Shown piece by piece: positions 14,905 through 38,318 of a DNA stretch of 64,000 nt; position 1 is the first letter of the stretch, and each line of letters begins with the position of its first letter. The notes beneath the pieces are model-generated. The model was not told the DNA's origin. It saw only the letters and a program-made list of their open reading frames with translations, and did not search any database. The translations under genes were made by a program, and so were the position numbers. The stretch covers positions 576,001 to 640,000 of the forward strand of contig CAWCPV010000003.1 of NCBI GenBank assembly GCA_963797555.1, read 5' to 3'. Origin of the DNA: an uncultured Gammaproteobacteria bacterium (GTDB lineage Bacteria; Pseudomonadota; Gammaproteobacteria; CAWCPV01).

Positions 14905-15100
14905 GACGCCCCGAAGATCTGCTTCTTCCTGCGCTTCGGGATGAATACCACATGGTACTTACAGTCCCACTTCGTGTGGCTCGGACTCTGGTACTCTTTC
15001 ATCGTGGATCCCCTTCTCTTGGCGGAGATTGAAGATTCACGGCGACCGTCGTATAGGTCAAACCTCGGTGAGTCCCCCGGTCAGCATGGAAACCCTGACG
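14905..15100 (-). pseudogene. tnpA: IS200/IS605 TnpA N-terminal stub with its upstream end
   Basis: MKEYQSPSHTKWDCKYHVVFIPKRRKKQIFG from 15002, similarity then lost. Confidence 0.85.
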
Positions 15101-15880: not shown

Positions 15881-15899
15881 CGCAATTTCAGCCGTCTAA

Positions 15900-15950
15900 T
15901 TGAGAGAGGGGAGGTCTCACGACCTCCCCCCACACCATCGCGGGTAGAGT
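15900..15950 (-). other. Group II intron 3'-end remnant (domain VI, degenerate domain V)
   Basis: Minus strand ggtgtg-gggggaggtc-gtga-gacctcccct-ctctcaat ends in AAT directly before TAGACGGC. Confidence 0.6.
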
Positions 15951-16154
15951 CCGGGTCAAGTCCTTCGCTTTGCCAACCCCGCCCGCTCGGGGCCCACTCT
16001 CGCCGTCCATGCCGCCCCATGACAGCCGACGGCCACCTCAATCGCGGCCCTTGTTAAGGCCACAACTGGCTCGAGGCCGGGGCGTTCTGCCCCTTGCACG
16101 TCGGTCAGCCCGACCAGTGGAGGGCGGCCGTCGTGAACGCGCAGCTACACCCGC

Positions 16155-16547
16155 TCAGTCGTGGGAGGCCTCCCTCACGTAGCCAGATTCTTTCTTCAGG
16201 TAGGCGATGATGTCCGCGCGTTCCTGGGCGCTGGAGACCGAGAAGTTCATGGCTTGGCCCGGGATCAGCTTCTCGGGATCGCTGAGCCACAGATCCAGGG
16301 TCCGCTCGGACCACACCACGTTGGCGGATCTCACGGCGTCGGAGTACGAGTAATCGGCGACCGAGCCCGCCTTGCGCCCGTAAACCCCCTTGTGGGCGGG
16401 GCCGACGAGGTTGTGCTCGATGGAATGACAGGCCCCGCACTGGGTTTCGTACAAGAGCTTGCCGCGAACGGCGTCGCCTGCCGCGTTGGCGCCGCCGCAT
16501 GCGCCGAGCAGGCAGAGATACACTCCCACTGTCATGTGCTTTGCCAT
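16155..16547 (-). CDS. Periplasmic class I cytochrome c (c2-like)
   Basis: Signal peptide, CGACH, GP.H.GVYGRKAGS, PGQAM distal Met; AGGAG RBS. Confidence 0.93.
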   Translation of the reverse strand: MAKHMTVGVYLCLLGACGGANAAGDAVRGKLLYETQCGACHSIEHNLVGPAHKGVYGRKAGSVADYSYSDAVRSANVVWSERTLDLWLSDPEKLIPGQAMNFSVSSAQERADIIAYLKKESGYVREASHD

Positions 16548-16562
16548 GATCGTTCTCCTTTC

Positions 16563-17927
16563 TCAGAAAGCCATCCACGCGCTCAGGAACAGGGTATTGT
16601 TGTCGGAGGCGTTGCGACCGGCCCCATCGTAGTTGTGCGCTGCACCGTCGAACTCGCTGTAGATGACGTACTGCAGCGTGAGCTGGACGTTCAGCCACGG
16701 CCAAAACGCGGGACCGCCATTCTTGTGCAAGGGCATGTAGTCGAGCTGGATGATCCAGCCGTTGCTGTTGGGACTGCCGGTGCGACTGTCTGCGTAAAGC
16801 AGCGGGTCGGTGTTGCCGTTGATGTTGAAGTACCCGAGGTTGAACCGATACGTCTTGTCGTAGAGATAGGCGAAGCGGGCCTTGAAGGTGCGCAGCGTAT
16901 CCTCGGCATTGCTCGTCTCGCCCAGCGGCTGACTGGCATCCCACCCCTGCTGCTCATGGATCCAACTGGTCTGGAAGGTCAGGCCGTGAACGTTGCCCAA
17001 GTATTGGTACTGGGCGTCGACCGCCACATCGGTGAAGTGGTTGGTTCCGCCGAGCTCGTCCCGCCCGAGGAAGGTATGGGCATCCAGCCCGAAGGTGCCC
17101 ACCTCCAGGGAGTGTTTGCCCCAGTTGTAGGGCAGCGCCACGCGCCAATAGGGCGCGGTGCCGTCGATCCAGTCCTCCTCGCTGGTGTTGACCCCGAAGG
17201 CGCGCTGCGTGCCGTTGGAGAGGGTACGGTAGCCATCGAGCTCGGCATACACCCGGTGGTCGAACAGGGTATAGCCCCCGAGTCCGAGGACCTGCTGAGC
17301 GAGCCCCTCGTCGATGAGGGTGGAAGCCGCCGGGGTGGGCGCCAGATCGGAGCTGACGAAGGGGAAGCTCCACACCGGCGTGCTGTTCCAGAGGTCTTGG
17401 ACCGAGGGGTTGTTGTTGACGGTGATGCCGTAGGTGACCGGCCGTTCGGCCATCGAGGCGCTGTGCGCGTATCGGATGTCGAGGTTGTCCCAGCCGAGAT
17501 TGTGTTCCACGCCGCTATAGGTGATCTGGGCGAACATGCCGAGGCTATCGAGGAGCCTGCCTCCGTAGAACACACTCGTCTCCTGCAGCGCCAGATTGTC
17601 GTTCGGGCCGAAGAACTCACCGGCCCCCTCGGGCTGGGAGGCGCTGGTATGGGTGAACGTCGGTACGAGCATTCCCGAGAAATGCCCGAACCATGAGAAC
17701 GCGTGGCTGTCCTTGACATAGCCGTTGAGCTTGAATTCCCGCCCGAACGGGGTGAGCTCCGGGTACGCCGTGTGGCACACGTTGCAGCGCAATCCCGTCT
17801 GGCGGGCAAAGGAGGGAATGGCCCAGGCATCGCGTGCGGGAATGGACAGGATGCCCGCAGCCAGCATGAGCAGAGCAAGGCGAGAGAGAACCACGCGCCG
17901 ATAGCCCGTACCCGACCAGTTGAACAT
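16563..17927 (-). CDS. cyc2: Cyc2-like fused monohaem cytochrome c-porin (outer membrane)
   Basis: Signal peptide then AIPSFARQTGLRCNVCHTAYPELTPFGREFKLNGY (Cyc2 haem-domain signature); beta-strand-rich body; terminal aromatic residue (WMAF). Confidence 0.85.
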   Translation of the reverse strand: MFNWSGTGYRRVVLSRLALLMLAAGILSIPARDAWAIPSFARQTGLRCNVCHTAYPELTPFGREFKLNGYVKDSHAFSWFGHFSGMLVPTFTHTSASQPEGAGEFFGPNDNLALQETSVFYGGRLLDSLGMFAQITYSGVEHNLGWDNLDIRYAHSASMAERPVTYGITVNNNPSVQDLWNSTPVWSFPFVSSDLAPTPAASTLIDEGLAQQVLGLGGYTLFDHRVYAELDGYRTLSNGTQRAFGVNTSEEDWIDGTAPYWRVALPYNWGKHSLEVGTFGLDAHTFLGRDELGGTNHFTDVAVDAQYQYLGNVHGLTFQTSWIHEQQGWDASQPLGETSNAEDTLRTFKARFAYLYDKTYRFNLGYFNINGNTDPLLYADSRTGSPNSNGWIIQLDYMPLHKNGGPAFWPWLNVQLTLQYVIYSEFDGAAHNYDGAGRNASDNNTLFLSAWMAF

Positions 17928-18288
17928 GTTGTTTCTCCTGTTATTCTTCGAGGGTCCTCTTGTGGACCGCTCAACGGGTTAGTGGGACGTTCGCGCCGTC
18001 CGGGAACTGCTAAATCAAGTTCTTCTTACCTCCACGGTCAGGCGGACTTTCCTTTCCCGCAGACCGACTTTTGAAATGTCAACGGTCAAAACTTCGGAAC
18101 AGAGAGGCCCAGGAAATGCCGCAACACCTCCCATTCGCACGCGCAACAGGTGTCTTGGGCGGCCCTCCTACGCGCGCTCGCTAGCGCCGGACATCTACAC
18201 CTTCCCAAGCCGGACTGCCTCGCTAGACAGCCGAGCACGTGTGCCCCTGCTGCGACACTGGCCTGCCAGCGCGACATGGCTCATCTCT

Positions 18289-19113
18289 TCACCCACTGGT
18301 CGATTTCGGTCGTCCTACCGTGGTGTGGCTGACTCGGGAGGACATATTCTCGAGTGTGATCAACACGGGATCTCGCTGGAGCACGGTGACGTCGTGACTT
18401 ACGTTCCCGCTCGTCAACGTCAAGAAGGACCCGTGGTCGACGAAGGTGAAGTTGTCCCCCCTGCTTGCGGTCGTCCCGCCGGTCGTGATCGAGATGTTTT
18501 GGGAGATATTTTCTCCGCTGATCGTCATGGCCCCGCTCGCCGTGATGTTCCCTTGGGCGGTATCCAGTACCGCGCCGGTGCTCCGGCTCAGAGTCGTCCT
18601 TGTCAGGTCGTAGGTTCCGTCGAGTGAGCCGGTCGATGTCCCGATGATGGCGAAGTTCTGCATGTTCTGTTGCCACTGGAGCGTTACGTTCGTGCCCGGT
18701 GACGGAAAATCGGGCGCCAGATGCAGGTTGTTCGCCCCGCGCAGAAATTCCTGACCGAAGGTAGTGACCGTGAATGCCGCCTGCCCGAACTCGACGCCAT
18801 CGGCGAGCGCGCGCACGGTATGGGGGCCATCGCCGAGCCGGTTGAAGTTGATCAGCAACGCGAATCCGTTGTTGGTATCGCCGCACACCGGGAGGGTGTC
18901 TTCGCGGATGGTGCCGTAAGCAGCATCCACCGTCTGCACGCCGTCGAACTCGATCTCGATGCGGGTCGCGCTGCAATTCCACCCCGAGACCACACCGATG
19001 CCGCTCATATAGGAAGCGGGCGCGGGGATCTCCAAATAGCCTTGCGCCCATGCCGGCCCGCCGCTCGCCAGTCCCACCGCCAACGCGAATACCGCTCTAG
19101 TCGTCCTGTTCAT
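18289..19113 (-). CDS. Secreted hypothetical protein (Ig-like and beta-rich domains)
   Basis: Signal peptide AWA-Q; LEIP..SGIG.VSGWNC, YGT.REDT..VCGDTNNGF.LL.NFN.LGDG.H. Confidence 0.7.
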   Translation of the reverse strand: MNRTTRAVFALAVGLASGGPAWAQGYLEIPAPASYMSGIGVVSGWNCSATRIEIEFDGVQTVDAAYGTIREDTLPVCGDTNNGFALLINFNRLGDGPHTVRALADGVEFGQAAFTVTTFGQEFLRGANNLHLAPDFPSPGTNVTLQWQQNMQNFAIIGTSTGSLDGTYDLTRTTLSRSTGAVLDTAQGNITASGAMTISGENISQNISITTGGTTASRGDNFTFVDHGSFLTLTSGNVSHDVTVLQRDPVLITLENMSSRVSHTTVGRPKSTSG

Positions 19114-19242
19114 GGGAGCTATTTCCTCCGGTGGAAGATGCTGTCGAGCACCATGTGCCTACTCCTTCGCCCGGCGGCCCGTCCGTGCCGCCGCCTATGG
19201 CGAGCCGGGCAGAAACGGTTTCTCGGGGTGCCCATCGCTGCG

Positions 19243-20910
19243 CTAGGGGATGATCCAATCTGTCTCGGGAACGAGCTGGTCGCTGTCGGGAGCAGCAAAA
19301 CGCACGATGTATCCCCCTTTGACGCGAAGCGCTGATTGGGTCCGAGGCTGAGGCGATGGTACATGGCGGTCGCCAAGCGTTTGCTGATCACGTCCTCGGC
19401 GGTTTCCAGGAGATAATCGCGGTGCAGATTCTCCTGCATTTCGTCGAGCTTTTCCGACATGAGAGCGCAGGCGAGATAGGCATCGGTCTGCACTCGCTCA
19501 TCGACCAGTTGCAAATTCCGTTTCTTGAACCAAGTGGAAATGAACGTATAGGCCATGTTCGCGCGCCGCTTGTCCGGAAGCTCGAACGGATACGCCATCC
19601 GCGCCAGCGCCTTCCAGGCAGGTGGGACCGGTGCCTGCTCTCCTCCTGCGAGGATCGCCGAGAAATAGGCCGCCGCGCCCGCGGCCGGCACCTCCGCCAG
19701 CTTCGCCACATCGGCCCCGCGCAGCCAAAATACCAGGACGTCTCCACTTCCCACATCGGCGATAGCTTGCCGCAGCACGGCCGCGTCGACCGTGTGCAGA
19801 ACCCGTTCTTCGAGCGGGATGACCCGACTTCCGCAGTGCCTTCTCCAGCGCCTGAGCAGCCCCGGCGGCGGCCGGGTCATCGCCGCGGATCTGGACCACC
19901 CGTTTCACGCCCGCGTGCTCACCCCGCTCACTGAGCTGATGTGCGAGTATGTGCGCTTCCAGGATGACCCCTTCGGAGAAGTAGACAGGGTAGTAGTCAG
20001 CCGGCGCGACCACCGGAAGATCCACCGTCGGAAACCAGCACGGAATACCCTGCTTCTCGCAGAATTCATGCACCGGCGCCCAGTCGCCCTGCGACAGGCC
20101 CGAGATCAGTGCGAATACCGGCTGGCGCTGGTAGTGGTCGGCGAGCTGCGCCTCCCACGTCTCGGGCGGACCGCTCAGATCCCACACCTGCAGATCCCAC
20201 GAGCGGTAGGTCTTGTACTGGGAGCCGGGGTAAGGCTGCTCGCGGAGCTTGTCGAGCCGCGTCCCCCTGTTCTTGATATCGAAGAAGGTATGCAGCACAT
20301 CGAGCATGGCCTTGCGCTTGGCCGGGTCAACGTCCGGCGTCATGACCGTGGCGAAGCGAATACTGTCCTCGGTGACGCCGGGCGACCATTGCTTCGAAAG
20401 TTGCTTCAGGTAGTCGACCAGAAGCTGCGCGTCGGAATCGCTCAGCGCGTAACGCGGCATCATCCCGTCCAGAGTGACGCCTGACGAGTCCGTGCCTTCG
20501 CGGATCGCGCGCACCAAGGTCTGGTCCGTATAGGGATCGTGCAAGCGGTTCCGGCCGAGAGCGTGGGCGAAGTCCGGACCGCGGGCGCGGTGCAGGTCCA
20601 TCGGACCGCCCGCGGTTGGCCGAGGCTGATACAGGAACCGACCGGTGATGGGCAGAATAATCCGGGTGCCCTCCACCGTGCCCAGCCCACTGCGGCGATG
20701 GCACAGGACGCACGCCGCGAAAGCGCCCGACACCACGACGCCGCCCGGGTGCGCCCCCCGCAGCGGCTCCCCCGAAGGCAACACGCCTTCGCGGTAGATA
20801 CGCTGGGCCATATACCCTCCCGCGGCGGCCGGGGCTTGAGCAGCAGCCGCACTCCAAGCGGGCGCCGCACAAGCCGTCAGCAGCGCACCGAGCAGCACCC
20901 GCACGAGCAT
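19243..20910 (-). CDS. Cytochrome c fused to a periplasmic-binding-protein-like domain (frameshifted)
   Basis: Signal peptide, CVLCH, MMPRY, WSPGVTEDSIRFATV; continues through 19119-19880 and ends FASKG/GYIVRF..DWIIP* at 19243 after two indels. Confidence 0.75.
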
Positions 20911-20968
20911 GGCCGGACCGGTCTGGGAACAGGGTGATGTGCGGTCTTATGTAACGCCGCGTATGCCG

Positions 20969-21610
20969 TCAGTTGGCCGCGAGGAACTGACGAGTTTCCT
21001 TGACCAGCTCGTCAGGCGGCACGAAGCCCTCGAGCCGCACCCAGGGCTTGCCCGGCGCCGCACGCAGAAACGTCACGGCGACGTGGTTCATCTTGTCCGT
21101 GCGGTACACATCGAATGCCTTCTGCAGCGCAACGCTCGCCTTCACCGTTCCGGTATAGAAGCTCCACTGCGGGCCGGCGTGGAACTTCTTCGCGTACTCG
21201 GTGAGCCGCGCCGGGGTGTCCTGCTCCGGGTCGATGGAGATCGAGACCATGCGCACTTTGCTGCCCTCGTCGCCGAGCCGGCTCTGGACTTGGGCGAAGG
21301 TCTGACTCAGGATGGGGCAGACAGCCGTGCAGGTGGTGAAGATGAAGTCGAGGATCACCGGCTTGCCGTCGTCGATCGCCTTGGGAAAGTCGACCTCGGC
21401 CCCGTCCGCCCGCACCAGCGTCACCTCGGGAACCGTGTAGCCGACCGTGGTCCTTTCCCAGGTGTCCGTCGCCGCCGCCGCAGGATGGTGATGGGCGTGC
21501 GGGTCCTGTGCGGTGTCGCCAACCGCAGCCCCCGAGACCGCCAGCGCAACGAGAGCACCCAGCAGCACCCCGCGGCCTGCGGATCGATTCGAGCGATTCG
21601 GCAGCTCCAT
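20969..21610 (-). CDS. SCO1/SenC family copper chaperone
   Basis: FIFTTCTAVCP (CxxxC), SIDPEQDTP, distal His (KMNH); His-rich N-terminus HAHHH. Confidence 0.93.
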   Translation of the reverse strand: MELPNRSNRSAGRGVLLGALVALAVSGAAVGDTAQDPHAHHHPAAAATDTWERTTVGYTVPEVTLVRADGAEVDFPKAIDDGKPVILDFIFTTCTAVCPILSQTFAQVQSRLGDEGSKVRMVSISIDPEQDTPARLTEYAKKFHAGPQWSFYTGTVKASVALQKAFDVYRTDKMNHVAVTFLRAAPGKPWVRLEGFVPPDELVKETRQFLAAN

Positions 21611-21622
21611 TTCCGTCTCCTG

Positions 21623-23525
21623 CTACTTGATCTTGATCGACAGGGGTTTCGTCGCGACCAGGGGGGGGCTCTGGCTGTGGTCGGTGACTTGGGCCGTGAA
21701 GCTGTAGGTGCCCGCCGTATTAGGCATGGGCACCCCCGTGATCTTTCCGGTCGTGGCGTCGAGGCTGAGCCCGGGCGGCAAGCTGCCCGCGGCCAGCGAC
21801 CACGCGTAGGGCTTTATTCCACCCTTGGCAGCCAACGCCTTGGAGTACGCCGTGCCGACAGTGCCTGCAGCGAGGGTCGAGGTGGTGATTATCAAGGGAT
21901 CGACGACCACCATGATGGAGAGCGGCTGTGTGGCTTTGCTCCCCAGCGTGTCTTTGGCCTGGACCGTGAAGCTGAACACACCGGGCGCCGTCGGCGTGCC
22001 GGAAATGGCGCCCGTCTTCGCGACGAGACTCAGCTTCGCCGGCAGCGTGCCTGAGATACGCGACCACGTGTAAGGGGGGGTGCCGCCGCTCGCCTGCAGT
22101 ATCTGCTTGTAGGCCACGCCCACGTGTGCGTTCGGGAGAGAGGTCGTGAGGATGCTCACGGGCATCGTTCCGGTGATGTCGGCATAGGCCGCGTACACGT
22201 TGATCAGACCGTATCCGTAGTTGTTGTCCGCCCCGGCCGTGCCCAGGTCCGTTGCGGTGCTCTCGAGCTCTTGCTCGAATCTCGCCCACTGTTAGGGTCG
22301 GGGACGCGCTGAGGAGCAGGGCTGCCGCTCCGGCGACGTGGGGCGCGGAGAACGATGTCCCCGAGACCCAGACATACCCTCCGCCTGGTTTCGCGGTCTT
22401 CACGCTCACGCCCGGAGCCACCGTGCTCGGGAACACGCCATTGAAACCGGGGCAGGCCGAAGTCCCTCGGCTGCTGAAGGACGCCACCGTGTTGGTGCTG
22501 TCGACGGCACCGGCCGAGAACCCATCGAGGTTGTTAGCGGGGCTGATGCTCGTCGACAGGTGCGGTCCGGAATTACCGGCGGAGAAGACCACGACGATCC
22601 CTGCAGACCTCAGCGTCTCGAAATCGCTCTGGAACGTGTTGTCGCAGGTGTTCACCCCGCTCAGCCCCCAGGAGGCATTGACGACGTCCGGAGCGTCCGT
22701 CGTGGTCGAATTCCCATCGGGGTCGAGAAGCCACTGGAATGCCTGGTGGATGATACTGAGCGTCGTGTTGCCGGAGTCGTCGAAGATCTTCGCGGCGATC
22801 CACGTCGCGTCCGGCGCCACGCCGATCGCCGTGCCCCCGGCGCTGCCGCCCACCATGACGCCCATCGTCTGTGTGCCGTGACCGATGGCATCATAGGGGG
22901 TCGGGTGAATCTTGTAGATGTCGAACGGGTCGAACCAGCTATCCGTCCCCCCGCGCCACTTGCTCTGCAGGTCCGGATGGGTGAAGTCGACGCCGGTGTC
23001 CATGTTGGCCACGACGACGCCGCCTCCCCCATCCCCGAGACTCCACACGTCGGGGGCATGAATGTCCGTGATGTTCCATTCCGGCGCCGCGGCGGCTGCC
23101 TGAGTCACTACCGGGGCGCTGACCGTCGAGTCCAGCTCGACGCTCTGGACGCCCGGGAACCTCGTCAGTGCACGTATCAGGCCCGGCTTGGCGGCGACCG
23201 CAATGCCGTTGATGATCCAAAGCGGCGTGAACCGTGCCGCCCCCCCTGCCCGCAGCAGCGCCCTGACCGGGCCCTGGGTCGCATCGCTTTTCGCCCGCAT
23301 GGCCTGGGCGATCTGCGCCCCACGCACATGCTTGTCAGGGGCCCGAAACGCCTTCGGGTCCACTCGGTCCGAAAGCGTCACGATGACCGGTATTTCATCA
23401 TTCGGACCGGCGGACTGGAGTGCTTCGGGGAGAGTCTGCGGAGTCGCGGCCTCCTGGGCGACCGAAACGGCGCCGCAAAGCACCAGAAGCAAACACCCGA
23501 CCGACGAAGCGAAAAGTCTTTTCAT
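21623..23525 (-). CDS. S8 subtilase with prodomain and C-terminal Ig-like (He_PIG-type) repeats; frameshift at ~22265
   Basis: Catalytic motifs MDTGVD, HGTQTMG, FSAGNSG, GTSFSAPHV; DNNYGYGLIN links it to ORF 21623-22198, which has two LQASGG..PYTWS..G.LP..LSL repeats. Confidence 0.88.
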
Positions 23526-23538
23526 GGTCTGGTCCCGC

Positions 23539-24033
23539 TCATTCCACGACGATGTTTTCCAGCTTGCAGTCCCCGATGACCACGGTGACCTTGCTGCCCT
23601 TCTTCACCTTCTCGAGGGCATTGGAAAACAAGATGTAGTACTGCTTGCCGACCACCGGCGGGTTTCTCACGCTCGCCCGCAGCGCGCCGACGTTGGTATC
23701 TTCCGGCGAGCCCAACGCCGACCGCGTTGCCGGGTCGAACAGGTAGGGCTTGATCCGCTGGTCGAAGAGAGGCCGTGCTTTGACGGCGTCGACCACCTGG
23801 TAGCGGAAATCCAGCATGCGGCCGCCGAACGTTGGGCGCAGAGCCACCGGCTTGATTCCCCAGGTGGCCTCGGGCGACGCGGCAGCGGTCTGAGCGGCCG
23901 ATGCCGGAGCCGGAGCCTGTTGCTGTTCCGCGGGGGCGGCCAAAGCCGGCGCCGCCACCGTCAGGGACGCGAGCGCACAAAGACCTACTACGCTCTCGAT
24001 ACGGTTCATAGCCAGGACAGTTGGGCGTCTCAC
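23539..24033 (-). CDS. Periplasmic/secreted hypothetical protein
   Basis: Signal peptide, Ala/Pro linker, MLDFRYQVVD..KA.PLFD..IKPYL, YYILFSN..VK.GSKVTVVIGD; tightly packed in the operon. Confidence 0.75.
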   Translation of the reverse strand: MRRPTVLAMNRIESVVGLCALASLTVAAPALAAPAEQQQAPAPASAAQTAAASPEATWGIKPVALRPTFGGRMLDFRYQVVDAVKARPLFDQRIKPYLFDPATRSALGSPEDTNVGALRASVRNPPVVGKQYYILFSNALEKVKKGSKVTVVIGDCKLENIVVE

Positions 24034-24116
24034 GCGGCCTTCGGTTCATCTCCCTCCCCCGGGTGTCGACCCGGGGGAGAAGAGAGTACGATGGCCCCCG
24101 ACGGCGCCGTCTCCGA

Positions 24117-25580: not shown

Positions 25581-25594
25581 GGCCTGCCTCCGAT

Positions 25595-27163: not shown

Positions 27164-27174
27164 AGCGCTCCTCC

Positions 27175-28596: not shown

Positions 28597-28615
28597 GGTC
28601 TCCTCCTTCGGGTGG

Positions 28616-31600
28616 TCAGGCCCGCCGTGCCGGCGGGCCTGACTCTCCCGTTGCCTCTGCTGCTAGGGGGTTGGTCGACGTGCCCGTGACCGTCACGGAG
28701 ATGGCCGGCGGTGGCGTCGCTGCTCCGAACGGGTCGATGAGCACTGTCGCAGTCTTCGGACCCGCAAGCACCGCGGTCGTCGGCGCGAAGGTGACGGTGA
28801 CCGTCACGTTCCCTCCCGCCGGGACCGTCCTGTTGATGGGCCCCGAGGTGAACTGGTTGGGGCTCAGTCCAGGTCCCGCCGGTCTCGTCACCGTGAAGGC
28901 CACCGTGCCGCTCGTGTTGTTGTGCACGTTCACCAGCATTGACGTGCACGACGCGGTTGCTGCGCAGTTTCTGGGTATTCGGGAACGCGAGGCTGAGCGG
29001 CGACACGGTCAGGGGCGGACCCGCCATACGGGGCGCCGCCGTCTGGTCCGCACCGATGTCGATCGGCGCAGCCCGCGTGTCCTGGTCGAAGTCGAGGGTC
29101 TGCAGCGGCGGATACTGGATCGCGCCGCCCGCCCTCACCGCGGGCGAGAAAGTATCTCCCGGGATGTGGTGGTGTCGGGCCACGAGACCGTTCGGCGTGA
29201 AGGTGGCCACGACGAAGTTGCCCAGCGCCGCTCCCTTCGACGTCGCCGTATAGGTGTTGAAGTAGCTCTGAGGAACAGCGGATCCGTCCCGGTGAGGTTG
29301 GTCGGGTGGCGGTGGCGCCATCGGCGGCCGTGAGGATGGAGTACGTGGGGCTCATCGTCTACACCGGCTCGCCCCGGTGACCGTACCATGAGATCGCAGT
29401 AAAAGTTCGCGCCGAGCGTCGGCCCAGGCGCCGGGGCCGCGGGACAGTGGTTGTCGCTGCAAGGAGGGCACCTAGGCCATTGTTGGCGGTGGCGCACCAG
29501 TAGAACGAGCGGTTCTGCCAGACAATGTCGTCCACCAGGACCGGGTTGGAGATTCTGACACTTCGGGTGCTGTAGTTGGTAGTGCAACTCGAGCCAGCGC
29601 GATCACGCGAGCTCGGTGCTGTTGAGCCGTGGCCGTGATTCCACCGACCTGCGGTGATCGAGTTCGTCAGTCCGCCGGCAACCTCTGTAGGCGGACATTG
29701 CGCACCCGGCAGTGCCGGGGGCTCCGGGCAAGGGCCACCGAAGGCATCGGAGCTGGTGGCAGTGCTGGCGTTGTTGCGCGACGGTATTGCTGACAGCGAA
29801 TATGTTCACCGTGTCGTCGAACGCCATCCCGCCGCCCTGGTCGGCACTCGAGTTGTTGACGACCATGTTGTTGAAGATCTGGATCTGGTACCACTGGCTC
29901 GGATCGGCCGGATTGTTCGCCACGTCCAGACCGTTGACCTTGAGGGTCCGGATACCGCCGCCGTCGTCCCCGCCCTTGTTGCCCTGGATGAGGTTGCGGT
30001 TGACTACGACCGGGCCGGCGCCGTAGCTCAGCAAATCCGGCGGGACCGGCAAGTCGCCGGCGATGTGGAGCCCGCCTCCTTCGTCGAAGGACTCGTTGGA
30101 AACGAAGATGTTGTCCTGGATCAGGGACGTGTTGCCGGTCGTCGGACTCTTGAGGCTCAGGCCGAAGTGCCCGAGGCCTCCGCCGTACTGGGCCGAGAAG
30201 TTGGCGCAGACCATGTTGTGCGTGACCTGGTAGCCGTCGGAGCCCGCGTACAGCGCCATGCCGCCGCCGCCGCTGAACAGGCTGCCGTTCTTCGAGATGC
30301 GGTTGTGGTCGATGACCAGGTCCGCATTGAAGTTGCTCCCCGTCAGGTTGCCCGCCGTCCCGGCCAGAGCGCCCTCGCCGACGCGGATGCCGCCGCCGAT
30401 GCCGCCCTGGTTGGCGAAGACCTCGTTGTTGCTGATCGTCAGGTTGGGTGCGAAGCCGTTCACCAGGATGCCGCCCCCGGCCTCGGTCGCGCCGGTGATG
30501 GTCAGCCCGTCGATCTGGGCGTGCGCCCCGGGGCTGGAGAAGTCATTGCCGGTCGTGCAGCCGGCGGTGAAATCACATCCCGCCACCAGGATGCCGGCCC
30601 CTTGCTCCAGGGTGAAGTCCGAGGCCTGGCCGGGGACGATGCCGATGGCAGTGCTCGCGATCAAGCTCTGGACGGAGCCCGGATTAGTGAGGTCGCGAAC
30701 TGCCAGTCCTTGAGCGCGAAGTTGCCGAGCGCGGCGGTGCCGTCCAGGATGGTGACGGCGGCGCCGAGCCCCTGCAGGGTGATCGGCTTCCACAAGTTGA
30801 CATTCTCCTGGTAGCGGCCGACGCCCACCATGTTGTCCGGAGTCAGCACAACGATGGCGCCATTTTTCGCGGCGTCGATGGCGGGTTGGACTACCCCGCA
30901 CGCGATGCCGACGCAATTCGCGGCCGGGGGATCGACGACGAGAACGTCACAGGCGCTGCTGTACCCGCCGGGGAGACAGGAGACCGCACCAGCGCTCACC
31001 GCGTGCAGGGTGACCCCCACGGTCGAGGAGAGGCCGTTGTCCGCGGTGACCACCAGCTCGCCCGAGAGGCCGCCGGGGACGGTTGCCGTGATGGCGCCGT
31101 CGGCCCAGCCGGTGACCGCGATCGGCGTGCCGCCGACGGTCACGGTGCCGCTGCCTTGCGCTGCCCCGAACCCATGCCCCGGGACGGCGGTGATGGTGAT
31201 GCCCATACCCGTCGCCGGGATGATCACGTCACTCACCTGCTGGATCTCCGGCGTGCCGGCGACATAACTGCAGTTGACCGGTACGGGGTTCGTCACGAAG
31301 GCCGAAACCGGCAGCACGATGGTGTCGATGAACGTGGTCCGGCCGGGATAGAACTCCCAGTTCTCCCGGATCACTTCCTGGCTGTACGCCGGGTTGAAGA
31401 ACGGGTCGGTGATCCACTGGCCCGGGTCGGAGAGCGGGAGTTCGTGGATCGGACCCGGATCGTTCGGGGCGATGGTGTACATCTGCAGCACCAAGCCGAC
31501 GGGAATCGGCGGCGCGATGTCGTAGTTCGCCGGGACCAAGCCGTCGAAATGGCCCCACTGGTCGGTGTAGAACCGGGCGACCTCCGTCCCCTTCCAGTCC

Positions 31601-34574
31601 TTGATGGCGACCGGCAGGTAGGGCACCGCGAGGTTGCCGCTGGCGTTGGGGCTGTCCGGCCTGAACTCGAGCGCCAAGTCGTTCCAGACCGTACCCCAGA
31701 TGCGGGCCGCCTTGGGGACGAACGTGAACAGGTTGAAGTCGGTGGTGCCGTCGTCGCCGGGGTTCAGCGAGACTTCCTTCATGTTGCAGCCGGCGGCCTG
31801 TAAGCCCGGTACCCAGGGACCCAGGTCGCTCACGCTGGTGTCGGTCTCCACCATCTGGTCCGGGAACAGCGTGTGGTACTGCGGCACGTCGTAAAGCGGG
31901 CCCACGCAGTCCGGCAGCTCCTTCAGGAACGGGATCTTCGGATCCCCGAACTCGATGTTGCGGTCGCCCCACGAGACGACCTTGTAACCCGCCGGCGGGA
32001 CCACCTCCACGATGTAGGGGCCGGGGGCGATGGGGGTATGAGCGTCATCGCCCATGTCCTCGAACGTGTACGCGCCGTCGAAACGCCCGGGCCGGGTCTG
32101 ATCCCACTTGTGGAAGGTCTCGGCGCAGCTCGGGATGGCATACCCGTTGACTATCTCGTTTCCGGGGCCAGTTTCACCCCAGGCGGCGTTGTTCCACTTG
32201 CCGACGCAGTCCGTGGGCTGGTGGTCGTCCCAGCTATCGGACGTCGTAGTGAGCGGGAAACCAGCCGCGCCCTCGTCCGGGTCGATCGCCCAGCATTTGC
32301 CTTGGGGAGTGGCTCCCGCGTCAATGCCGTCCTGGGTGCAGGCGCTGCAGTTGACGTCGTCGCAATACTGCTGCCCCCGGTGAAGATGGACGGTGACCCT
32401 GGGAATTCCCGGCTCCCAGCCGTCGATCGCGCTGACGTGGGGGTCTTCCTCGGTGCGGGTGGTGGCATAGTTGACCTGTCCGCGGATGCCGCCGTTTTGA
32501 CAGTCAGTGGCGTCACCCGTGGCGCAGCCGCTCACGTCGTAATCGTGCTGGCCGAAGTCGATCCGAGCCGTCATGTCCTGGAAGAGCTGGAACGCCTCGG
32601 TCACCGCGGTGCTCCGCTCTGTCCGATATTGCCTTCCACCGGGACTCGACCCGGCGGGCTGCAGTTGGGGGTTGATCCCCGTTCCCGCGAACGCGCCGCT
32701 GGTGGGCAGGTTGCCGCCGTCGTCCACCACCGCGGTGATCCCGGTGGGCTTGAAGCGCGGCAGCCCGACCTCGGCCACCAGGTAACGCCACCAGGTGAAG
32801 TACTGGTCGACGGTGTAGCCGCCGTCCGGGCCAGTGGTGGCGTTCGCATACATCGAGCCGTCGCTGAAGCGCAGGTTGACGGGGACGTTGGGGATCCCGA
32901 TGCCTTCTGTGCTCTGGCGGTATCCGTCCTGGTTATTGTCCTGGAACACCGTCCCGGTGACGGTGGCGAACCAGCCGTAGACCGATACCGGTCCCATGGC
33001 AATCGTCGGCGTGGACGCGTCGCAGGTGATGGTCCGGAAGTCGATGATGGCGTTGATCGGCTTGTCCCACATGACGAGCTGATAGGTGCCCGCCGGCACC
33101 CCGGCGATGCTGAACTGGCCCGTGTTGGGGTCGGCCGCCGCCGTGTACACCTGCTCGTCGTTTCCGGACAGGTTGTTCAGGCCCACGTAGGCATTGGCCA
33201 CCGGAAGCCCGGGGCTCAGCCCGGGCGAGAGCGGAGGATGAGCGTCGTGGGCGTACACCACCTGCCCGGTGATGTTGCATACCGAGGCACCCAGTGTGGA
33301 CAGCGTATTCACATTGTTATGCACGAAGCCGTAGAACACGAGCCAGTTGAGCTGCCCCAGGGCGATGTTGTAGCGGGGCTCGGTGGCGCGCACCCAGGCG
33401 TCGTTTTGCCGGGTTCCCTCCAGCGTGGCGGTGAGCAGCATGTCGTGACAGTCCGAGTCCGAATTGCAGGGGGTTCCCGAGCCCGGCACCACCGGCTCGA
33501 TGGCGTACTTGTTCTCCGACATGTAGCGGATCACGGCCTCGCCGGCGGCCAGGTCGGTCAGCGTATAGGGATCCTTGCAGTTGGCGTCGTAGTACCCCGT
33601 CGGGTAATCGGAGGGAGCCCCCCCGCAGGTGCGGATGATCCCGTCCCCCAGGTAGTCGACGACCGGCAGACCGTCGGCATCGTATTGGAATATCGGCTGC
33701 TGCTCCGGAGGCAGCGGGTTGCCGCTCGCGTCGGCAGGCACGTTGAGGGCGATGCACGCCGGCTGGGTGCATTCGTAGGCGTATTTGTAAGTCGTCCCGA
33801 GGGGGTAGGTGAACTGGTCCTGCTGCAAAGCGCCGGCCACGTCGCTCACGAGGAGCTGGAAATTCGATAGCCCGTGCTCTGCGGGCTGGTCGTAGGCGCC
33901 GTTGATCGAGTCGTTGTCCTCGAAGACCAGCACCGTGATCTGGGCCAGGGGCTGCGGGAAGGGGTGGACCACCACGGTGGCGGTGGTCTGGCCGGCGGCG
34001 ATGTCGCGCCCGTTCATGCTGGTAGCCGGTCTGCAGGTTCGGGATGGTGCAGTCGGCGACGGTATCGCTGCAGGTGTGCCATGGCAGCACGGACAGGACG
34101 TAATTCTTCGTCGAATCGTAGCCCGGACAATTGCCGGCACCGATGGTCACCGACGCCTCGGCCGTGTCCGTGGTCGCCCCCGCATCCGGGCTGGTGTCGC
34201 CGACGCACACGGTCGGCGCGTGGCTGTGGTGGATGTTGACGGAGAGCGTGTAGCTCGGGTTGACGGCGCCCGGCGTCGAATCGAACGGCGCGTTCGGGCT
34301 CGGGGTGCCCGGGTAATGGTACTGGCACGCCCCCGGCCGGTCCCGCCCAGGGGCCGGTAGCGTCCGGAGCGGTCTTCTTGATCCCGTACGAGTTGTCCAG
34401 CTCGAGCAGCCAGCGGAACCCGTTGGTGATGGGATTACCCGCGTCGTCGTTCACGTTGACGGCGATGTCCGCGGCGGCCGGGCCGGCCATCAGGAGCCCC
34501 AACAGGACGACCAGGGTCGTCCACCAGTGGCTTGCCGCTGTTCCGAGAGATCTGTAAGATGCTTTAGCGCGCAT
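28616..34574 (-). CDS. Giant (~2000 aa) secreted protein with SdrD-B/carboxypeptidase-regulatory-like, IPT/TIG, beta-helix and terminal Ig-like domains; several frameshifts
   Basis: GGAGGAG RBS and signal peptide at 34574; continuous coding style across ORFs 34014-34586, 33317-34210, 30661-34140, 29603-30916, 29135-29587, 28593-29321 and 28616-28939; GTVFQDNNQDG, GFGAAQGSGTVTVGG, GGG-N beta-helix repeats. Confidence 0.75.
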
Positions 34575-35050
34575 GGGCTCCTCCATTGGTCGCCGCCGGT
34601 GCCTGCGGAGCGAAAGTCGAGGCGTCGATACGAAACGCCATCGTCATCGAGAAAATCGGTCTTGAGGAAACGTGCATGGGCCACTCCCGCGCCCGGCGCA
34701 GGGCGGCGCTTCTCGACAAAGTCCGCAGGTTCATCCGGATTCCTCCTCCAACTGCATACACCCCGACAAGAAAAGAGGCGCCGGCGGAGACGATCGGAGA
34801 GTGACTCCTCCGTCTCGACCGGTCACGCGTGGCTGTGGAGCTTGCCCAGGTCCTCGACGGCAGCCCCGGCGTCCCCGACAGCTCGGCTGAGCCGAGCCGG
34901 CACGCCGGATCGTTAGAAGACGGACACGAAGCGCTGGCTACCTTCATGAGTCTGCGACTGCTCCTATGGCTCGAAAGCCTAACGTTCCGTTCACGTGGGT
35001 ATACCCACGGTCACGGGTTACTTAAGGTTTGCTTAAGGTCGCTGACTACT

Positions 35051-35067
35051 AGCAAATGCCGGGCCAA
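35051..35067 (-). promoter_or_regulatory. Sigma54 (-24/-12) promoter for the oxidase cluster
   Basis: Minus strand TTGGCCCGGCATTTGCT = TGGC-N7-TTGC, exact spacing; divergent from a GAFTGA-type activator. Confidence 0.85.
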
Positions 35068-35153
35068 TGGCGTGCTCAGCAAAAATAGTGAGATTAACCA
35101 GCGCCTTATGCTGTCATCGCCGGTTGTTGTCGGCGATAGGCCTGGTCCAGAAG

Positions 35154-35168
35154 CTACAATTTTTGTAG
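35154..35168. promoter_or_regulatory. Candidate upstream activator site
   Basis: Palindrome CTACAA-ttt-TTGTAG ~90 bp upstream of the -24 element. Confidence 0.5.
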
Positions 35169-35190
35169 GTGGCCCCGATTCGCGTAGCTT

Positions 35191-36918
35191 ATGCCCTGGA
35201 TCTCTCGGCTGAGCCGTTTGCAGCGAAAACTCCTGGCGGTGGTCCTGGCCATGGTGGTGGTGCCGATGCTGGTGGCCGGGGTGCTGTCCGCCTACTGGGT
35301 GTCGCATCGCTTCGAGCGCTCACGAGAGCGCTGGATCCGCACCGCGGCCGAGATCGATGAAGACTCCCTGCAAGCCTCGCGGCGCAATGGGCAGCTGTTC
35401 GCCGAGGTGCTGGCCGACCTGTGGCGACAGGACATGGCGGCGCGGCCCATGGAACGCTTCGCGGTGCCCCCGGAGCTGCGCCCCATGATGGAACAGCTCG
35501 GCATCAGCCTGATCCAGGTCTACACGGTGCAGCGACAGCTCGCCTACTCGTCGCCGCCTGCGCAGATGGTGAGTCCGTGGGCGCCCGGACAGACTCAGGC
35601 CATGCTCAAGCTGAGGTCCGGGCAGCAGGCCCTGCTCGCGACGGTTGCCATCCGGCCGGTGCCGCGCCGCGGGCAGACTCGCTACTACCTGGTCGCCGGC
35701 ACCCTGCTGGATGGAGCCTATCTGGCTCGCCTGAGCCAGCGGAGCGGACTCGATGCCCGCCTGTTCTACCCGGACGGTCCTCAGGAGCAGACGTTTCACG
35801 ACGCCGCCGGAGCGACCGCGATCGAGCTGCCTGCCGAGGCCTTCGAGCGCTTCAAGACAAGGGAGGGCTATTACAGCGAACGCGCGGAGGGCGGTGCCTA
35901 CCGGGGCCTCTACACCCCCCTGCTGGATCCGGCGGGCCGGGTCGAGGCAGTGCTATTCAGCGGCCTGAAACGCCACGGGTCGAACGAGGTCGTCAGTCCC
36001 CTGAAGCTATCACTGGCCATCGTGCTGTTCGGCTTGCTCATCGGAGCGGTGACCCGGCTGGCGCTGACCCGTCTACTGGTAAAACCCATTGAGCGGCTGC
36101 GCAACGGCGTCTTGCAGCTCGCGGCGCAAGACTTCTGCGTGACGCTGCCCGACAGCTCGAACGACGAGCTGGGCGACCTCGCGCGCTCCTTCAACGCCAT
36201 GGCGGCGCGGTTGCGGGAGGCGCGGGACGAAGAGCACCGGCAGTTCCAGATGGACAAGCTCACCGCCTTGGGCGAGCTTTGCTTGGCGCTGGCGCACGAG
36301 ATTCGTAACCCTATTTCGGTCATCAATACCGCCTGCTCGTTGCTCGAAGCCACCCGTCAGGATCCGGACAAGCAGGCCGGTCTGGCCCAGATGGTCCGCG
36401 AGGAGACCGGACGCCTGAACCGGTTGTTGAAGGACTTCCAGCAACTGTCGCCCTCCCGCCGCCCACAGATCTCGACCTTCGACCCGGTGCAGCCCCTCGA
36501 TCGGGCGATTCGCCTGGCGCTCGCGGCCCGCGACGACATTCGCGTGGAACGCCACATCCATCACGGCGGGACCACGGTCAACGCCGATGCGGAGCTCATG
36601 CAGCAGGCATGGAGCAACCTGCTGAGCAACGCCTTGGAGGCTATCGGCGATCGGGCTGGAAGCCTGCGAGTGACGACGCTCGTGGAACGGGGCGAGGTCG
36701 TGGTGGCCCTGGAAGATACCGGACCCGGAATACCGGCGGAGCTGATCCCGCGGCTCTTCGAGCCGTTCTTCACCACCAAGGAGCGAGGGACCGGGCTCGG
36801 TCTCACGCTGGCGCACAGGCTGGTCGAGGCCAACGGGGGCCGCATCGAGCTGCAGGCCGCGCAAGGAAGTGGAGCCAGATTCGCTATGCGTTTTCCGGTT
36901 GACGTGACGGAGGAGTGA
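35191..36918 (+). CDS. Membrane sensor histidine kinase (HAMP, HisKA, HATPase)
   Basis: Two TMs, DELGDLARSFNAM, LAHEIRNP, NLLSNA, DTGPGIP, PFFTTK..GTGLGL. Confidence 0.95.
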   Translation: MPWISRLSRLQRKLLAVVLAMVVVPMLVAGVLSAYWVSHRFERSRERWIRTAAEIDEDSLQASRRNGQLFAEVLADLWRQDMAARPMERFAVPPELRPMMEQLGISLIQVYTVQRQLAYSSPPAQMVSPWAPGQTQAMLKLRSGQQALLATVAIRPVPRRGQTRYYLVAGTLLDGAYLARLSQRSGLDARLFYPDGPQEQTFHDAAGATAIELPAEAFERFKTREGYYSERAEGGAYRGLYTPLLDPAGRVEAVLFSGLKRHGSNEVVSPLKLSLAIVLFGLLIGAVTRLALTRLLVKPIERLRNGVLQLAAQDFCVTLPDSSNDELGDLARSFNAMAARLREARDEEHRQFQMDKLTALGELCLALAHEIRNPISVINTACSLLEATRQDPDKQAGLAQMVREETGRLNRLLKDFQQLSPSRRPQISTFDPVQPLDRAIRLALAARDDIRVERHIHHGGTTVNADAELMQQAWSNLLSNALEAIGDRAGSLRVTTLVERGEVVVALEDTGPGIPAELIPRLFEPFFTTKERGTGLGLTLAHRLVEANGGRIELQAAQGSGARFAMRFPVDVTEE

Positions 36919-38318
36919 TGGAGCGCACCGTGCTGGCCGTCGATGACGAGCCCAACATGCTGACTGTGATGCGCATGACCCTGGAGGACGCCGGCTACCG
37001 CGTGCTGACCGCAGAACGCGCAGAAGCGGCAGTCCCGTACCTGCGCGACCCTGACCTGGGCGCGGTGCTGTCCGATCTGCAGATGCCCGGCTTGAGCGGC
37101 GAGGACTTTATCGCCCTCTGCCGCAAGGAGCGGCCCGACCTGTCGCTCATCATCATCACCGGTTATGGCTCCATACGCTCGGCGGTCCAGAGCATCCGAG
37201 CCGGCGCAACCGACTACCTGACCAAGCCGTTCGAGCCGGACGAGTTGTTGCTCGTGGTGCACAAGGCATTCAAGCTGCACGAACTGCTCAGCGAGAACCG
37301 CCGGTTGCTGGCGGCGGTATCGGACGCGATGCCGCACAAGCGCCTGATCGGACAAGGCGCCGGGATGCGGAAGCTGCTCGAAGAAGTGCGGCGCGTCGCG
37401 CCGTACAAGACCAACGTCCTGATTACCGGCGAGAGCGGGACGGGCAAGGAGGCCGTAGCGCGCGCCCTTCACGACATCGGGCCGCGCCGCGACCACCCCT
37501 GGGTCGCGGTCAACTGCTCCGCCATTCCCCGCGACCTGATGGAAAGCGAGCTGTTCGGCTACGTCAAGGGCGCCTTCACCGGGGCCACCCAGACCCGCCT
37601 GGGCCGGCTGGAGCAGGCCAACGGCGGCACGTTGTTCCTGGATGAGATCGGCGATCTCGATTTGGCGCTGCAAGGCAAGCTTCTGCGTGTTCTTCAGGAG
37701 CGGGAGTTCTCCCCGGTCGGCAGCGACGCGCTGCGCAGGGTGGACGTGCGTTTCCTCGCCGCGACTAACCGCGACCTGAGAGAGCTGGTGCGTCAGGATC
37801 GCTTCCGGGAAGACCTCTTGTACCGGTTGGATGTGTACAACATTCACGTGCCGCCCCTGCGTGAGCGCATCGAGGATATCCCGCTGCTCGCCGCGGCTTT
37901 CCTGCAGGAGCTATGCGCGGAGATAGACAAGTCCGTAGAGGGCTTTACCGAGCAGGCGCTGGACGTCTTGAGCAGCTACTCCTGGCCGGGAAATGTTCGC
38001 GAGCTGCGAAATACCGTAGAGCGCGCCTTGCTGACGTGCACGGGACGTTCGATCGACCTTCCAGACCTGCCGAGATTGTTGGCTGATCGGGTTGACCGTG
38101 CGAGGACGCTCGGGACGGAGCTGGAGTCGCTCGGGGAGCGCGGGCTGGATGGGTGGCTCGAAGAGAGAGAGCGGCAGGTCATCCTGCAGGCATTGAAGCA
38201 GTCCCGCGGGGTCCAGGTCCAGGCAGCGAAACAGCTCGGCATCTCGGAACGCAGCTTGTGGCATCGCATCAAGAAGCTGAACATCCAGCTCGACCGAGTG
38301 GTGCGCGAGATCTCCTGA
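36915..38318 (+). CDS. Sigma54-dependent response regulator (NtrC/AtoC family)
   Basis: Receiver domain (VDDE, SDLQMP), GESGTGKE, ELFGYVKGAFTGA, WPGNVREL, Fis-type HTH. Confidence 0.96.
   Translation: MMERTVLAVDDEPNMLTVMRMTLEDAGYRVLTAERAEAAVPYLRDPDLGAVLSDLQMPGLSGEDFIALCRKERPDLSLIIITGYGSIRSAVQSIRAGATDYLTKPFEPDELLLVVHKAFKLHELLSENRRLLAAVSDAMPHKRLIGQGAGMRKLLEEVRRVAPYKTNVLITGESGTGKEAVARALHDIGPRRDHPWVAVNCSAIPRDLMESELFGYVKGAFTGATQTRLGRLEQANGGTLFLDEIGDLDLALQGKLLRVLQEREFSPVGSDALRRVDVRFLAATNRDLRELVRQDRFREDLLYRLDVYNIHVPPLRERIEDIPLLAAAFLQELCAEIDKSVEGFTEQALDVLSSYSWPGNVRELRNTVERALLTCTGRSIDLPDLPRLLADRVDRARTLGTELESLGERGLDGWLEERERQVILQALKQSRGVQVQAAKQLGISERSLWHRIKKLNIQLDRVVREIS

Follow-up and report, generated by a model that had tools for sequence, protein, structure and literature searches.

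How is the copper site of a secreted oxidase formed when its ligands are encoded by different genes, and does such an enzyme work with a neighbouring Cyc2 cytochrome? Both questions are raised by a gene cluster in a 64,000-nt stretch of DNA (hereafter the window, to which all coordinates given without a contig or locus name refer) from an uncultured gammaproteobacterium (GenBank assembly GCA_963797555.1, contig CAWCPV010000003.1, positions 576,001 to 640,000 of the forward strand). The cluster is made of eleven co-oriented minus-strand genes (16155-34574), in agreement with the gene content given by an initial annotation made from the sequence alone. The same annotation assigned signal peptides to all eleven products, and hydrophobic signal-like stretches, judged by eye, mark every N-terminus. 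Gene identities come from Pfam, NCBIfam and the comparison with related loci. The three central genes encode cupredoxin paralogues, named here McoC, McoB and McoA. As judged from alignments, the ligands of a multicopper oxidase are split between McoC and McoB in all homologues examined. Copper proteins have often been proposed, and never shown, to act in neutrophilic iron and manganese oxidation; this type of cluster is a candidate.

Copper ligands of McoC and McoB

McoC (27180-28596) and McoB (25595-27163) are each made of two cupredoxin domains; the frame is intact in mcoB, and shifted once, near position 27350, in mcoC. McoA (24117-25577, frame intact) carries in addition a C-terminal immunoglobulin (Ig)-like domain of the 'choice-of-anchor D' type. 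Domain 1 of McoC features the motifs HxxHxH (H183, H186, H188) and HCH-x5-H-x4-M (H228, C229, H230, H236, M241), which correspond to a type-1 copper site plus four histidines of a trinuclear copper cluster. These ligand residues are invariant in 37 of 37 aligned sequences. Domain 1 of McoB is devoid of copper ligands, and reads YSG at the HCH position. The other four trinuclear-cluster histidines are found in domain 2 of McoB, in the motifs HxxHxHG (H326, H329, H331) and WHSH (H476, H478), and these residues are invariant in all 50 sequences aligned. McoA shows no copper-cluster ligands across 56 sequences, H173, M180 and H220 alone being conserved. A single-chain multicopper oxidase is defined by two HxH motifs, HxxHxH and HCH...H...M in one polypeptide. 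None of the three proteins conforms to this definition; McoC and McoB jointly hold the full set of four copper-binding motifs.

In a profile search of solved structures, the top matches of McoC and McoB were the two-domain oxidases 3g5w (E 1.5e-19 and 1.9e-15, respectively) and 2zwn (E 6.2e-18 and 7.1e-17). 3g5w is a Nitrosomonas europaea oxidase and 2zwn a metagenomic laccase, both homotrimers with the trinuclear cluster located between subunits. Domain 1 of McoC aligns with the domain 1 motifs of these enzymes (PHTIHWHG and YHCH...EH...M), domain 2 of McoB with their domain 2 HxH motifs. The NCBIfam models CopA and CueO matched weakly, at 27-38 bits against a cut-off of 479 for copper-resistance oxidases. 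Nitrite reductases were considered as well, and rejected: NirK structures matched weakly, and eight histidines in four HxH-type motifs make up a trinuclear cluster, not a type-2 site.

In trimeric two-domain oxidases, the trinuclear cluster is formed by four domain 1 histidines of one subunit and four domain 2 histidines of its neighbour. The family resemblance of the two proteins to two-domain oxidases of type C, as measured by profile comparison, is clear (E 1e-15 to 1e-19): a type-1 site and two HxH-type motifs in domain 1, two HxH motifs in domain 2, and a cluster spanning the subunit interface are shared features. The arrangement of two domains in one chain is not kept, however. Type C enzymes have all four motifs in each chain, and three active sites in each trimer. 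Since the domain 1 set is kept in McoC only, and the domain 2 set in McoB only, an assembly of McoC, McoB and McoA could have one active site at most, and, as each half of the ligands resides in a different gene, neither McoC nor McoB alone should be able to reduce oxygen. The split suggests that McoC and McoB form an obligate heteromer derived from two-domain oxidases. A literature search found no description of a split-site heteromeric oxidase. The division of ligands between McoC and McoB is the new part of this analysis, the rest of the core being known in outline.

A predicted heteromeric oxidase

The contact between McoB and McoC was modelled with the intact pair of the metagenome locus L016. 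The complex scored 0.91 (0.91, 0.92 and 0.91 in three runs), the best of 3 controls 0.20. Of 157 solved complexes, 116 attain the score mark reached by the model, as do 2 of 215 mismatched pairs. The runs have at least 90% of the contacts in common, and the partners feature predicted local distance difference test (pLDDT) values of at least 92. In L016 numbering, the interface involves residues 291-300 and 434-444 of McoB, which include H295, H297 and H441, and residues 162-176 and 210-214 of McoC, which include H166, H168 and H210. As the interface is made of the stretches that bear the motifs, the two ligand halves face each other in the model, which suggests that McoB and McoC meet at a shared trinuclear site.

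The oxygen-reducing centre would form only at the interface of McoC and McoB, domain 1 of McoC providing the type-1 copper and four histidines, and domain 2 of McoB the other four histidines. McoA may close a ring of three subunits and six domains, in the order C, B, A; it is placed there because of its constant co-occurrence with the other two, of the gene order, and of the geometry of the trimeric relatives. Such a ring would look like a trimeric two-domain oxidase that has kept one active site of three. Ceruloplasmin-type oxidases have six cupredoxin domains in one chain, arranged as a ring, with one trinuclear cluster and several type-1 sites. The likeness to these, an analogy within a common cupredoxin fold, lies in six domains closed into a ring, with one trinuclear cluster where two of them meet; in contrast, the enzyme of the window would be built by three chains of two domains, and have one type-1 site.

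McoA would also link the enzyme to the giant scaffold encoded by the first gene of the cluster. This connection is argued from the fusion of McoA to the scaffold in Cupriavidus and, according to the published description, in Sideroxydans lithotrophicus ES-1. The scaffold gene (~28616-34574) would encode about 1,990 aa if read through its 6, probably 7, frame shifts; intact homologues measure 1812-1936 aa. Pfam and NCBIfam models identify SdrD-B, CarboxypepD_reg and TIG-like Ig domains, a right-handed beta-helix, and a C-terminus of the ASH/Ig-like type. Signal-like N-termini suggest export of the Sec type, with folding and copper loading taking place outside of the cytoplasm, which would explain the presence of a dedicated SCO chaperone. 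An S8 subtilase and a small beta-sandwich protein may serve as maturation or assembly factors.

The operon spanning from 34574 to ~19243 probably encodes, in our estimate, a secreted, scaffold-tethered, heteromeric multicopper oxidase together with its maturation factors. A more detailed proposal is slightly less likely than not. McoC, McoB and McoA may form an obligate heterotrimer with one trinuclear cluster and one type-1 site, with the ligand-free McoA acting as a handle to a 2,000-residue adhesin. The trimer would be intermediate between homotrimeric two-domain and single-chain six-domain oxidases, and be a mineral-surface oxidase, widespread in sediments, that has been mislabelled as three ordinary multicopper oxidases. 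Its most likely job would be the O2-dependent oxidation of an extracellular, probably solid-phase, reduced metal, such as Fe(II) minerals, on the lines proposed for Sideroxydans, or Mn(II).

If the site forms only between two different subunits, any of the genes expressed singly will yield an inactive protein. If the split is true, marker-gene surveys which count each gene as an oxidase over-count. A three-gene ring with one site would furthermore be a living example of the step assumed to lead from trimeric two-domain to six-domain enzymes.

Conservation of the gene cluster

Metagenome contigs were scanned with the McoA alignment. The scan yielded 352 confirmed stretches, from which 80 loci, 71 of them distinct, were kept; 136 representative clusters were found at E 1e-30 or better. 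The homologues are common in sediment and soil metagenomes. The core order in the 71 distinct loci is scaffold, mcoC, mcoB, mcoA, small protein, S8 protease. All 24 loci that extend 8 kb or more upstream of mcoA have mcoB, mcoC and both parts of the scaffold, which is a separate upstream gene in each of them, as in the window. Among the 18 loci with at least 7 kb downstream, the small protein follows mcoA in 18, and the S8 protease is found in 16. SCO occurs in 6 of these loci, as does a cytochrome c fused to a periplasmic-binding-protein domain (cytochrome c-PBP), similar to MofC. In L016, a 470-aa multihaem cytochrome (13824-15233; MtrC/MtrF-like and cytochrome c7-like matches) lies right after the S8 gene, replacing SCO and MofC. 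The initial annotation had viewed the locus as a dedicated module for the assembly and copper loading of a surface oxidase; the conserved synteny of scaffold, cupredoxin trio, small protein and S8 protease, with SCO in 6 of 18 loci, supports this view.

The whole set through the cytochrome c-PBP gene occurs in the same order in the complete genome G385, from the same class, and the core alone in genome G174. McoB matched 9 of 41 genomes in a sample of the class, the genome under study (G000) included; G010 was the only strong match beyond it. In a sample of the phylum, McoA matched 3 of 401 genomes, again counting G000. The two samples are too sparse for a phylogenetic statement. A scan of genome contigs with McoA returned one locus only. 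In a plasmid collection, McoB matched 12 chromid records at 37-40% identity, from Paraburkholderia (6), Ralstonia (4) and Cupriavidus (2). The order in Cupriavidus metallidurans CH34 is mcoC, mcoB, one frame of 2698 aa, small protein, MofC-like cytochrome. The long frame (chromid NC_007974.2; L102 13527-21623) joins a McoA-like cupredoxin part to the scaffold Ig and beta-helix parts, in agreement with the published description of Slit_1816 in ES-1 (PMC12016527). The cluster is also present in culturable and genetically tractable hosts, such as C. metallidurans.

Related gene clusters

The initial annotation was aware of no characterised system of this composition. This is half right: the core, though biochemically uncharacterised, is in print, as a cluster of ES-1 whose products rise on magnetite. 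A trio of cupredoxin genes in tandem, with SCO and a MofC-like cytochrome, was reported from ES-1 by He et al. (2017, PMC5566968); in their description, MofC-like proteins combine a cytochrome c domain with one for periplasmic binding. The cluster was named Slit_1812-1818 in a study on magnetite (Applied and Environmental Microbiology 2025, PMC12016527; preprint bioRxiv 10.1101/2024.09.20.614158). The three cupredoxin proteins, Slit_1816 to Slit_1818, were reported at higher abundance with magnetite than with Fe(II)-citrate; two were described as having canonical oxidase motifs, the third as larger, without motifs, and with adhesin- and polysaccharide-lyase-like domains. Similar clusters were listed in Paraburkholderia, Ralstonia, Anaeromyxobacter and Steroidobacteraceae (PMC12016527). 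As far as the cluster type is described, the rise on magnetite in Sideroxydans is the only lead on its role.

According to the description, Slit_1812-1818 includes three secreted cupredoxins in tandem, of which two have motifs and the third does not, as well as small hypothetical proteins, SCO1/SenC and a MofC-type cytochrome, in an order collinear with mcoC, mcoB, mcoA, small protein, SCO and MofC of the window. The clusters differ in several respects. In the window, the adhesin/beta-helix region (about 2,000 aa) has a gene of its own, the first of the cluster; in the described Slit cluster, it is the tail of the ligand-less cupredoxin. An S8 protease is inserted in the window, which also has a divergent kinase and sigma-54 activator, and a Cyc2 cassette next door. 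Two Slit proteins are called canonical oxidases in the description, whereas the proteins of the window and their aligned homologues hold half of the ligand set each. The locus is a variant of a described, uncharacterised cluster type, in which a separate scaffold gene comes first, and an S8 protease and regulators are found.

A secreted copper oxidase is also combined with a MofC-type cytochrome c in two described clusters, mofABC (Leptothrix) and ompB (Geobacter sulfurreducens), the latter of which has SCO1/SenC as well (PMC5566968). They feature one large oxidase, MofA or OmpB, in contrast to the cluster of the window, which lacks a MofA/OmpB type protein and MofB, an FKBP isomerase. A mofABC-like set is found elsewhere in the assembly, on contig C14 at ~136400-143400 (L100 6452-13369): a Cu-oxidase_2 oxidase, an FKBP isomerase, a MofC-like cytochrome c-PBP, a second FKBP, SCO and ApbE. 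This set has a sigma-54-like site in its neighbourhood (C14:131208).

The cyc2 pair

The last two genes of the cluster encode a Cyc2-family fused cytochrome-porin (16563-17927, 454 aa) and a class I cytochrome c (16155-16547, 130 aa, CGACH), the latter with a lipobox-like LLGAC in the signal peptide. The first features the motif AIPSFARQT-GLR-CNVCH-TAY-PEL, followed by a predicted 16-strand barrel. It has a single CXXCH, at residue 48 (CNVCH), after a hydrophobic N-terminal stretch, with AxPxFAR[Q/K][T/Y] just before and PxL just after, in agreement with the features described for Cyc2 (PMC8406198). Its length exceeds the described minimum of 365 residues, and the AlphaFold model has 16 strands (pLDDT 79.5). 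Residues A36, P38, A41, R42, Q43, T44, C48, C51, H52 and L58 are invariant in 32 homologues. Best Foldseek matches of the model were 16-strand porins (e.g. 5mdq, E 8.2e-10). The family is very large: of 8000 candidates scored, 7675 passed the threshold of E 0.001; the nearest relatives are unnamed soil and sediment proteins. No Pfam or NCBIfam model matches the protein, and the ESM Atlas returned unnamed clusters only, with a porin lead. By the published sequence features, the protein is a Cyc2. Keffer et al. (2021, PMC8406198) warn that its function is not certain beyond the clade of established iron oxidisers.

The initial annotation had coupled the oxidase to Cyc2. The comparison with other loci speaks against this link. 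In a check set beforehand, cyc2 and the cluster were never syntenic in the sample examined. cyc2, the cytochrome c gene and the gene for the 274-aa protein which precedes cyc2 in the window were found beside the cluster in 0 of the 18 loci with at least 7 kb downstream, and none of the three was matched at E 1e-6 in any of the kept metagenome loci. The six loci with cytochrome c-PBP reach 1.7-5.9 kb further, still without cyc2. No cyc2 was found in G385 within the next 13 kb downstream, nor beside the cluster in G174 and Cupriavidus CH34. In the window, cyc2 is parted from the rest of the cluster by a gap of 361 nt (17928-18288, upstream of cyc2) without coding signal. A simple scan of 15600-19300 for promoters and terminators detected neither a sigma-70 site nor a coding-strand terminator; Rfam found nothing in this gap, nor in the 470-nt leader of the scaffold gene, in a search over the whole window.

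The cyc2-cytochrome c cassette is present twice in the genome. Positions 16186-17834 correspond to C12:19686-21334, with 97.9% identity over 1649 nt. Identity ends inside both coding regions, pointing to gene conversion or recent duplication. The copy on C12 (L099 7668-9395) has unrelated flanks, an MFS transporter and a DUF1529 protein, and no cluster gene next to it. A third Cyc2-like gene, 41% identical, resides on C14. Just downstream of the cassette lies an IS110-family element (13088-14468, transposase 13170-14390), copies of which, 98.6-99.8% identical, are found on C3, C5, C10, C14 and C16. A dispersed repeat of 174 nt (14907-15080) is also found downstream of the cassette, and has at least 17 more copies on C3, C7 and C14.

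The two genes at 16155-17927 are a separate, duplicated module, a neighbour of the cluster in the present genome only. Their adjacency to it in one genome should not be taken as a functional link.

Transcriptional control

A divergent kinase and a GAFTGA-bearing regulator had been annotated upstream of the cluster, and both are there. The sensor histidine kinase (35191-36918, plus strand) is made of a periplasmic CHASE4-like region, HAMP, HisKA and HATPase_c. The NtrC-family sigma-54 activator (36915-38318, plus strand) has a receiver domain, an AAA+ domain with GAFTGA at residue 219, and a Fis-type helix-turn-helix. A sigma-54-type promoter candidate, TGGCCCGGCATTTGCT, is located upstream of the scaffold gene, on the minus strand (35051-35066), ~470-490 nt before the scaffold ATG (34574), which is preceded by GGAGGA. 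The leader is without coding signal.

The promoter had been called on the exact pattern TGGC-N7-TTGC. This loose pattern is not rare, with 7 matches in the window against 2.9 expected. The site itself holds: the -24 GG and -12 GC elements are correctly spaced in TGGCCCGGCATTTGCT, and 7 of 8 further consensus positions are matched. Sites as good as this number 34 on both strands of the 5.35-Mb assembly, or ~0.002 expected per 620-nt stretch as here. Among 21 distinct related loci, 4 have comparable sites, with leaders of 408-659 nt, upstream of the scaffold; the opposite strand of the stretches searched gave 2. Sigma-54 activator genes lie upstream of the cluster in L042 and L085/L088/L089. Homologues of the kinase or the activator are found downstream of it in L028, L060 and L087, and a divergent kinase/regulator pair flanks the cluster in G385. 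Control of the present operon by sigma-54 is likely, and is not a constant feature of the family. The site at 35051-35066 most likely drives transcription, which would be under the control of the divergent kinase and NtrC-type pair.

Frame breaks

Breaks in the cluster were mapped against intact homologues. They fall near positions 34350, 34040, 30665, 29775, 29303, 29270 and probably ~28960 in the scaffold gene, 27350 in mcoC, 22278 in the S8 gene, and 19800 and 19312 in the cytochrome c-PBP gene. Similar breaks are spread in the genome. A detector which recovers 2 of the breaks of the cluster found 420 in 4067 confident open reading frames (ORFs; ~10%), against 1 in 309 (0.3%) over 400 kb of the complete relative G385, a rate about 30 times that of the clean relative. 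Of 2916 ORFs here, 113 continue in the same frame after a stop, as do 27 of 328 control ORFs, and in-frame stops are not in excess. The segments between breaks are all open, and 41-86% identical to intact homologues. Homopolymers of at least 4 residues were found in 1 of 9 mapped break intervals, and not in the other 8; breaks without homopolymers look more like consensus errors than replication slippage.

Seven long housekeeping genes (valS, secA, gyrA, dnaE, uvrA, alaS and a leuS-like gene) are all unbroken. Zero events in these 19.9 kb, against 1.6 expected with the same detector, is not a significant difference. The assembly yielded none of rpoB, rpoC and ileS, which were sought as further test genes. 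Splits are seen in a second dnaE-like gene and in one activator gene of the present genome. On balance, the breaks are probably assembly errors, real decay being the less likely of the two.

Alternative explanations

Several observations weigh against a functional, scaffold-bound metal oxidase. The ~18-kb cluster carries at least 10 frame breaks, and, if these are real, the present operon copy is dead. Homotrimeric two-domain oxidases are among the structures already solved, and the score of the McoB-McoC model may reflect likeness to these rather than binding. Homology to Slit_1812-1818 rests on the published description and on the matches in Cupriavidus, Ralstonia and Paraburkholderia, genera which that description names (PMC12016527). 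A sigma-54-like site, by the criterion used, is lacking in 17 of the 21 related loci, and regulation is not uniform in the family. The rpoN gene was not found in the assembly with PF04552 and TIGR02395; the assembly, at 84.6% completeness, is without rpoB and rpoC as well. As the sigma-54 activator domain has 16 matches in the genome, eleven at E below 1e-40, a sigma-54 factor is argued to exist in the organism. The substrate assigned to the enzyme is a guess. A complete oxidase, moreover, passes electrons to O2, leaving no obvious route of energy conservation, which is awkward for a lithotrophic role.

The frame breaks raise the question of whether the cluster is a decaying array of pseudogenes, with no working enzyme in the present organism. 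We regard this as unlikely, although their density, the many near-identical insertion sequence copies, the split dnaE-like and activator genes, and the integrity of all seven long housekeeping genes, which implies that breaks are not evenly spread, would all fit decay. Such breaks are found genome-wide (420 in 4067 ORFs, against 1 in 309 in the relative), in-frame stops show no excess (113/2916 and 27/328), segments between breaks have stayed open and similar to their homologues, and 8 of 9 break intervals have no homopolymer of 4 or more. The oxidase may otherwise be real and act on something other than an energy metal, either as a laccase-like surface enzyme whose substrates would be phenolics or humic matter and whose scaffold would bind polymers, or as a cuprous oxidase for copper tolerance. 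The nearest solved relatives, which are two-domain oxidases of the laccase type, the polysaccharide-lyase-like beta-helix and adhesin-type Ig domains of the scaffold, and the residence of homologues on chromids of soil- and plant-associated Paraburkholderia, Ralstonia and the metal-resistant C. metallidurans would suit such substrates. So would the matches to CopA and CueO, were these, at 27-38 bits, not far under the cut-off of 479. The sole expression data reported for the described relative point to solid Fe(II), and MofC-like and SCO partners are otherwise known, from the clusters described, in mofA/ompB metal-redox systems; a role of this kind seems improbable to us. Least probable is a single integrated system under sigma-54 control, with the surface copper oxidase electrically coupled to the outer-membrane haem conduit Cyc2 via the class I cytochrome c and the cytochrome c-PBP. 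The eleven genes share one orientation, the absence of a detected terminator in the 361-nt gap makes read-through possible, Cyc2 has the expected sequence features and a modelled 16-strand barrel, and haem partners recur after the core (MofC-like in 6 of 18 loci, the 470-aa multihaem cytochrome in L016). These points are outweighed by the lack of cyc2, cytochrome c and 274-aa protein genes beside the cluster in the 18 loci, G385, G174 and CH34, by a cassette copy on C12 free of cluster genes, with duplication limited to the coding parts, and by the mobile element and dispersed repeat just downstream. A multicopper oxidase with a full trinuclear cluster, furthermore, gives electrons to O2, not to a cytochrome.

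Helper proteins and other features

SCO, the S8 protease and the small protein, all encoded downstream of McoA, are presumed helpers of the heteromeric oxidase. The small secreted protein (23539-24009, minus strand, 156 aa from the ATG) is the unknown periplasmic protein of the initial annotation. The gene exists, as the frame 23539-24033, and is a conserved neighbour in related loci. An Arg-rich ORF (23522-24142) was discarded as the small-protein gene, since it is the overlapping frame 23539-24033 that has a homologue there. A structure model predicts an Ig-like beta-sandwich (pLDDT 78). No Pfam or NCBIfam family includes the protein, and no Foldseek match was found at E 0.001 or better; the best VIA-align Z, 6.6, is within the chance range for beta-sandwiches. 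Aligned homologues have no conserved His, Cys or Met, for which reason a likeness to copper chaperones of the PCuAC type (VIA-align Z 4.7-5.2) was not taken up.

The next genes, all on the minus strand, encode an S8 subtilase with C-terminal Ig-like repeats (21623-23525, one frame shift near 22278), a SCO1/SenC copper chaperone with a His-rich N-terminal stretch (20969-21610), and the cytochrome c-PBP (~19243-20910), a MofC-like monohaem cytochrome c fused to a periplasmic-binding-protein domain, with frame shifts near 19800 and 19312. The last is 41% identical to its paralogue in the mofABC-like set on C14. The secreted 274-aa protein (18289-19113, minus strand) is confined to the version of the cluster in the present genome. 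The ESM Atlas returned for it unnamed clusters only, with an Ig-domain lead. Its paralogues are a tandem pair at C16:58216-59094 and a single gene at C3:984969-985803, beside which lie a gene for a sigma-54 activator (C3:983574) and, on the minus strand, a sigma-54-like site (C3:987388).

Two features lie further away in the window, both on the plus strand. An intact gene at 9151-11772 encodes an MprF-like lysyl-phosphatidylglycerol synthase of 873 aa. A cyclic di-GMP-I riboswitch is found at 57775-57863 (72.8 bits, against a gathering score of 35), and the next coding-like ORF seen downstream on the same strand starts at 58565.

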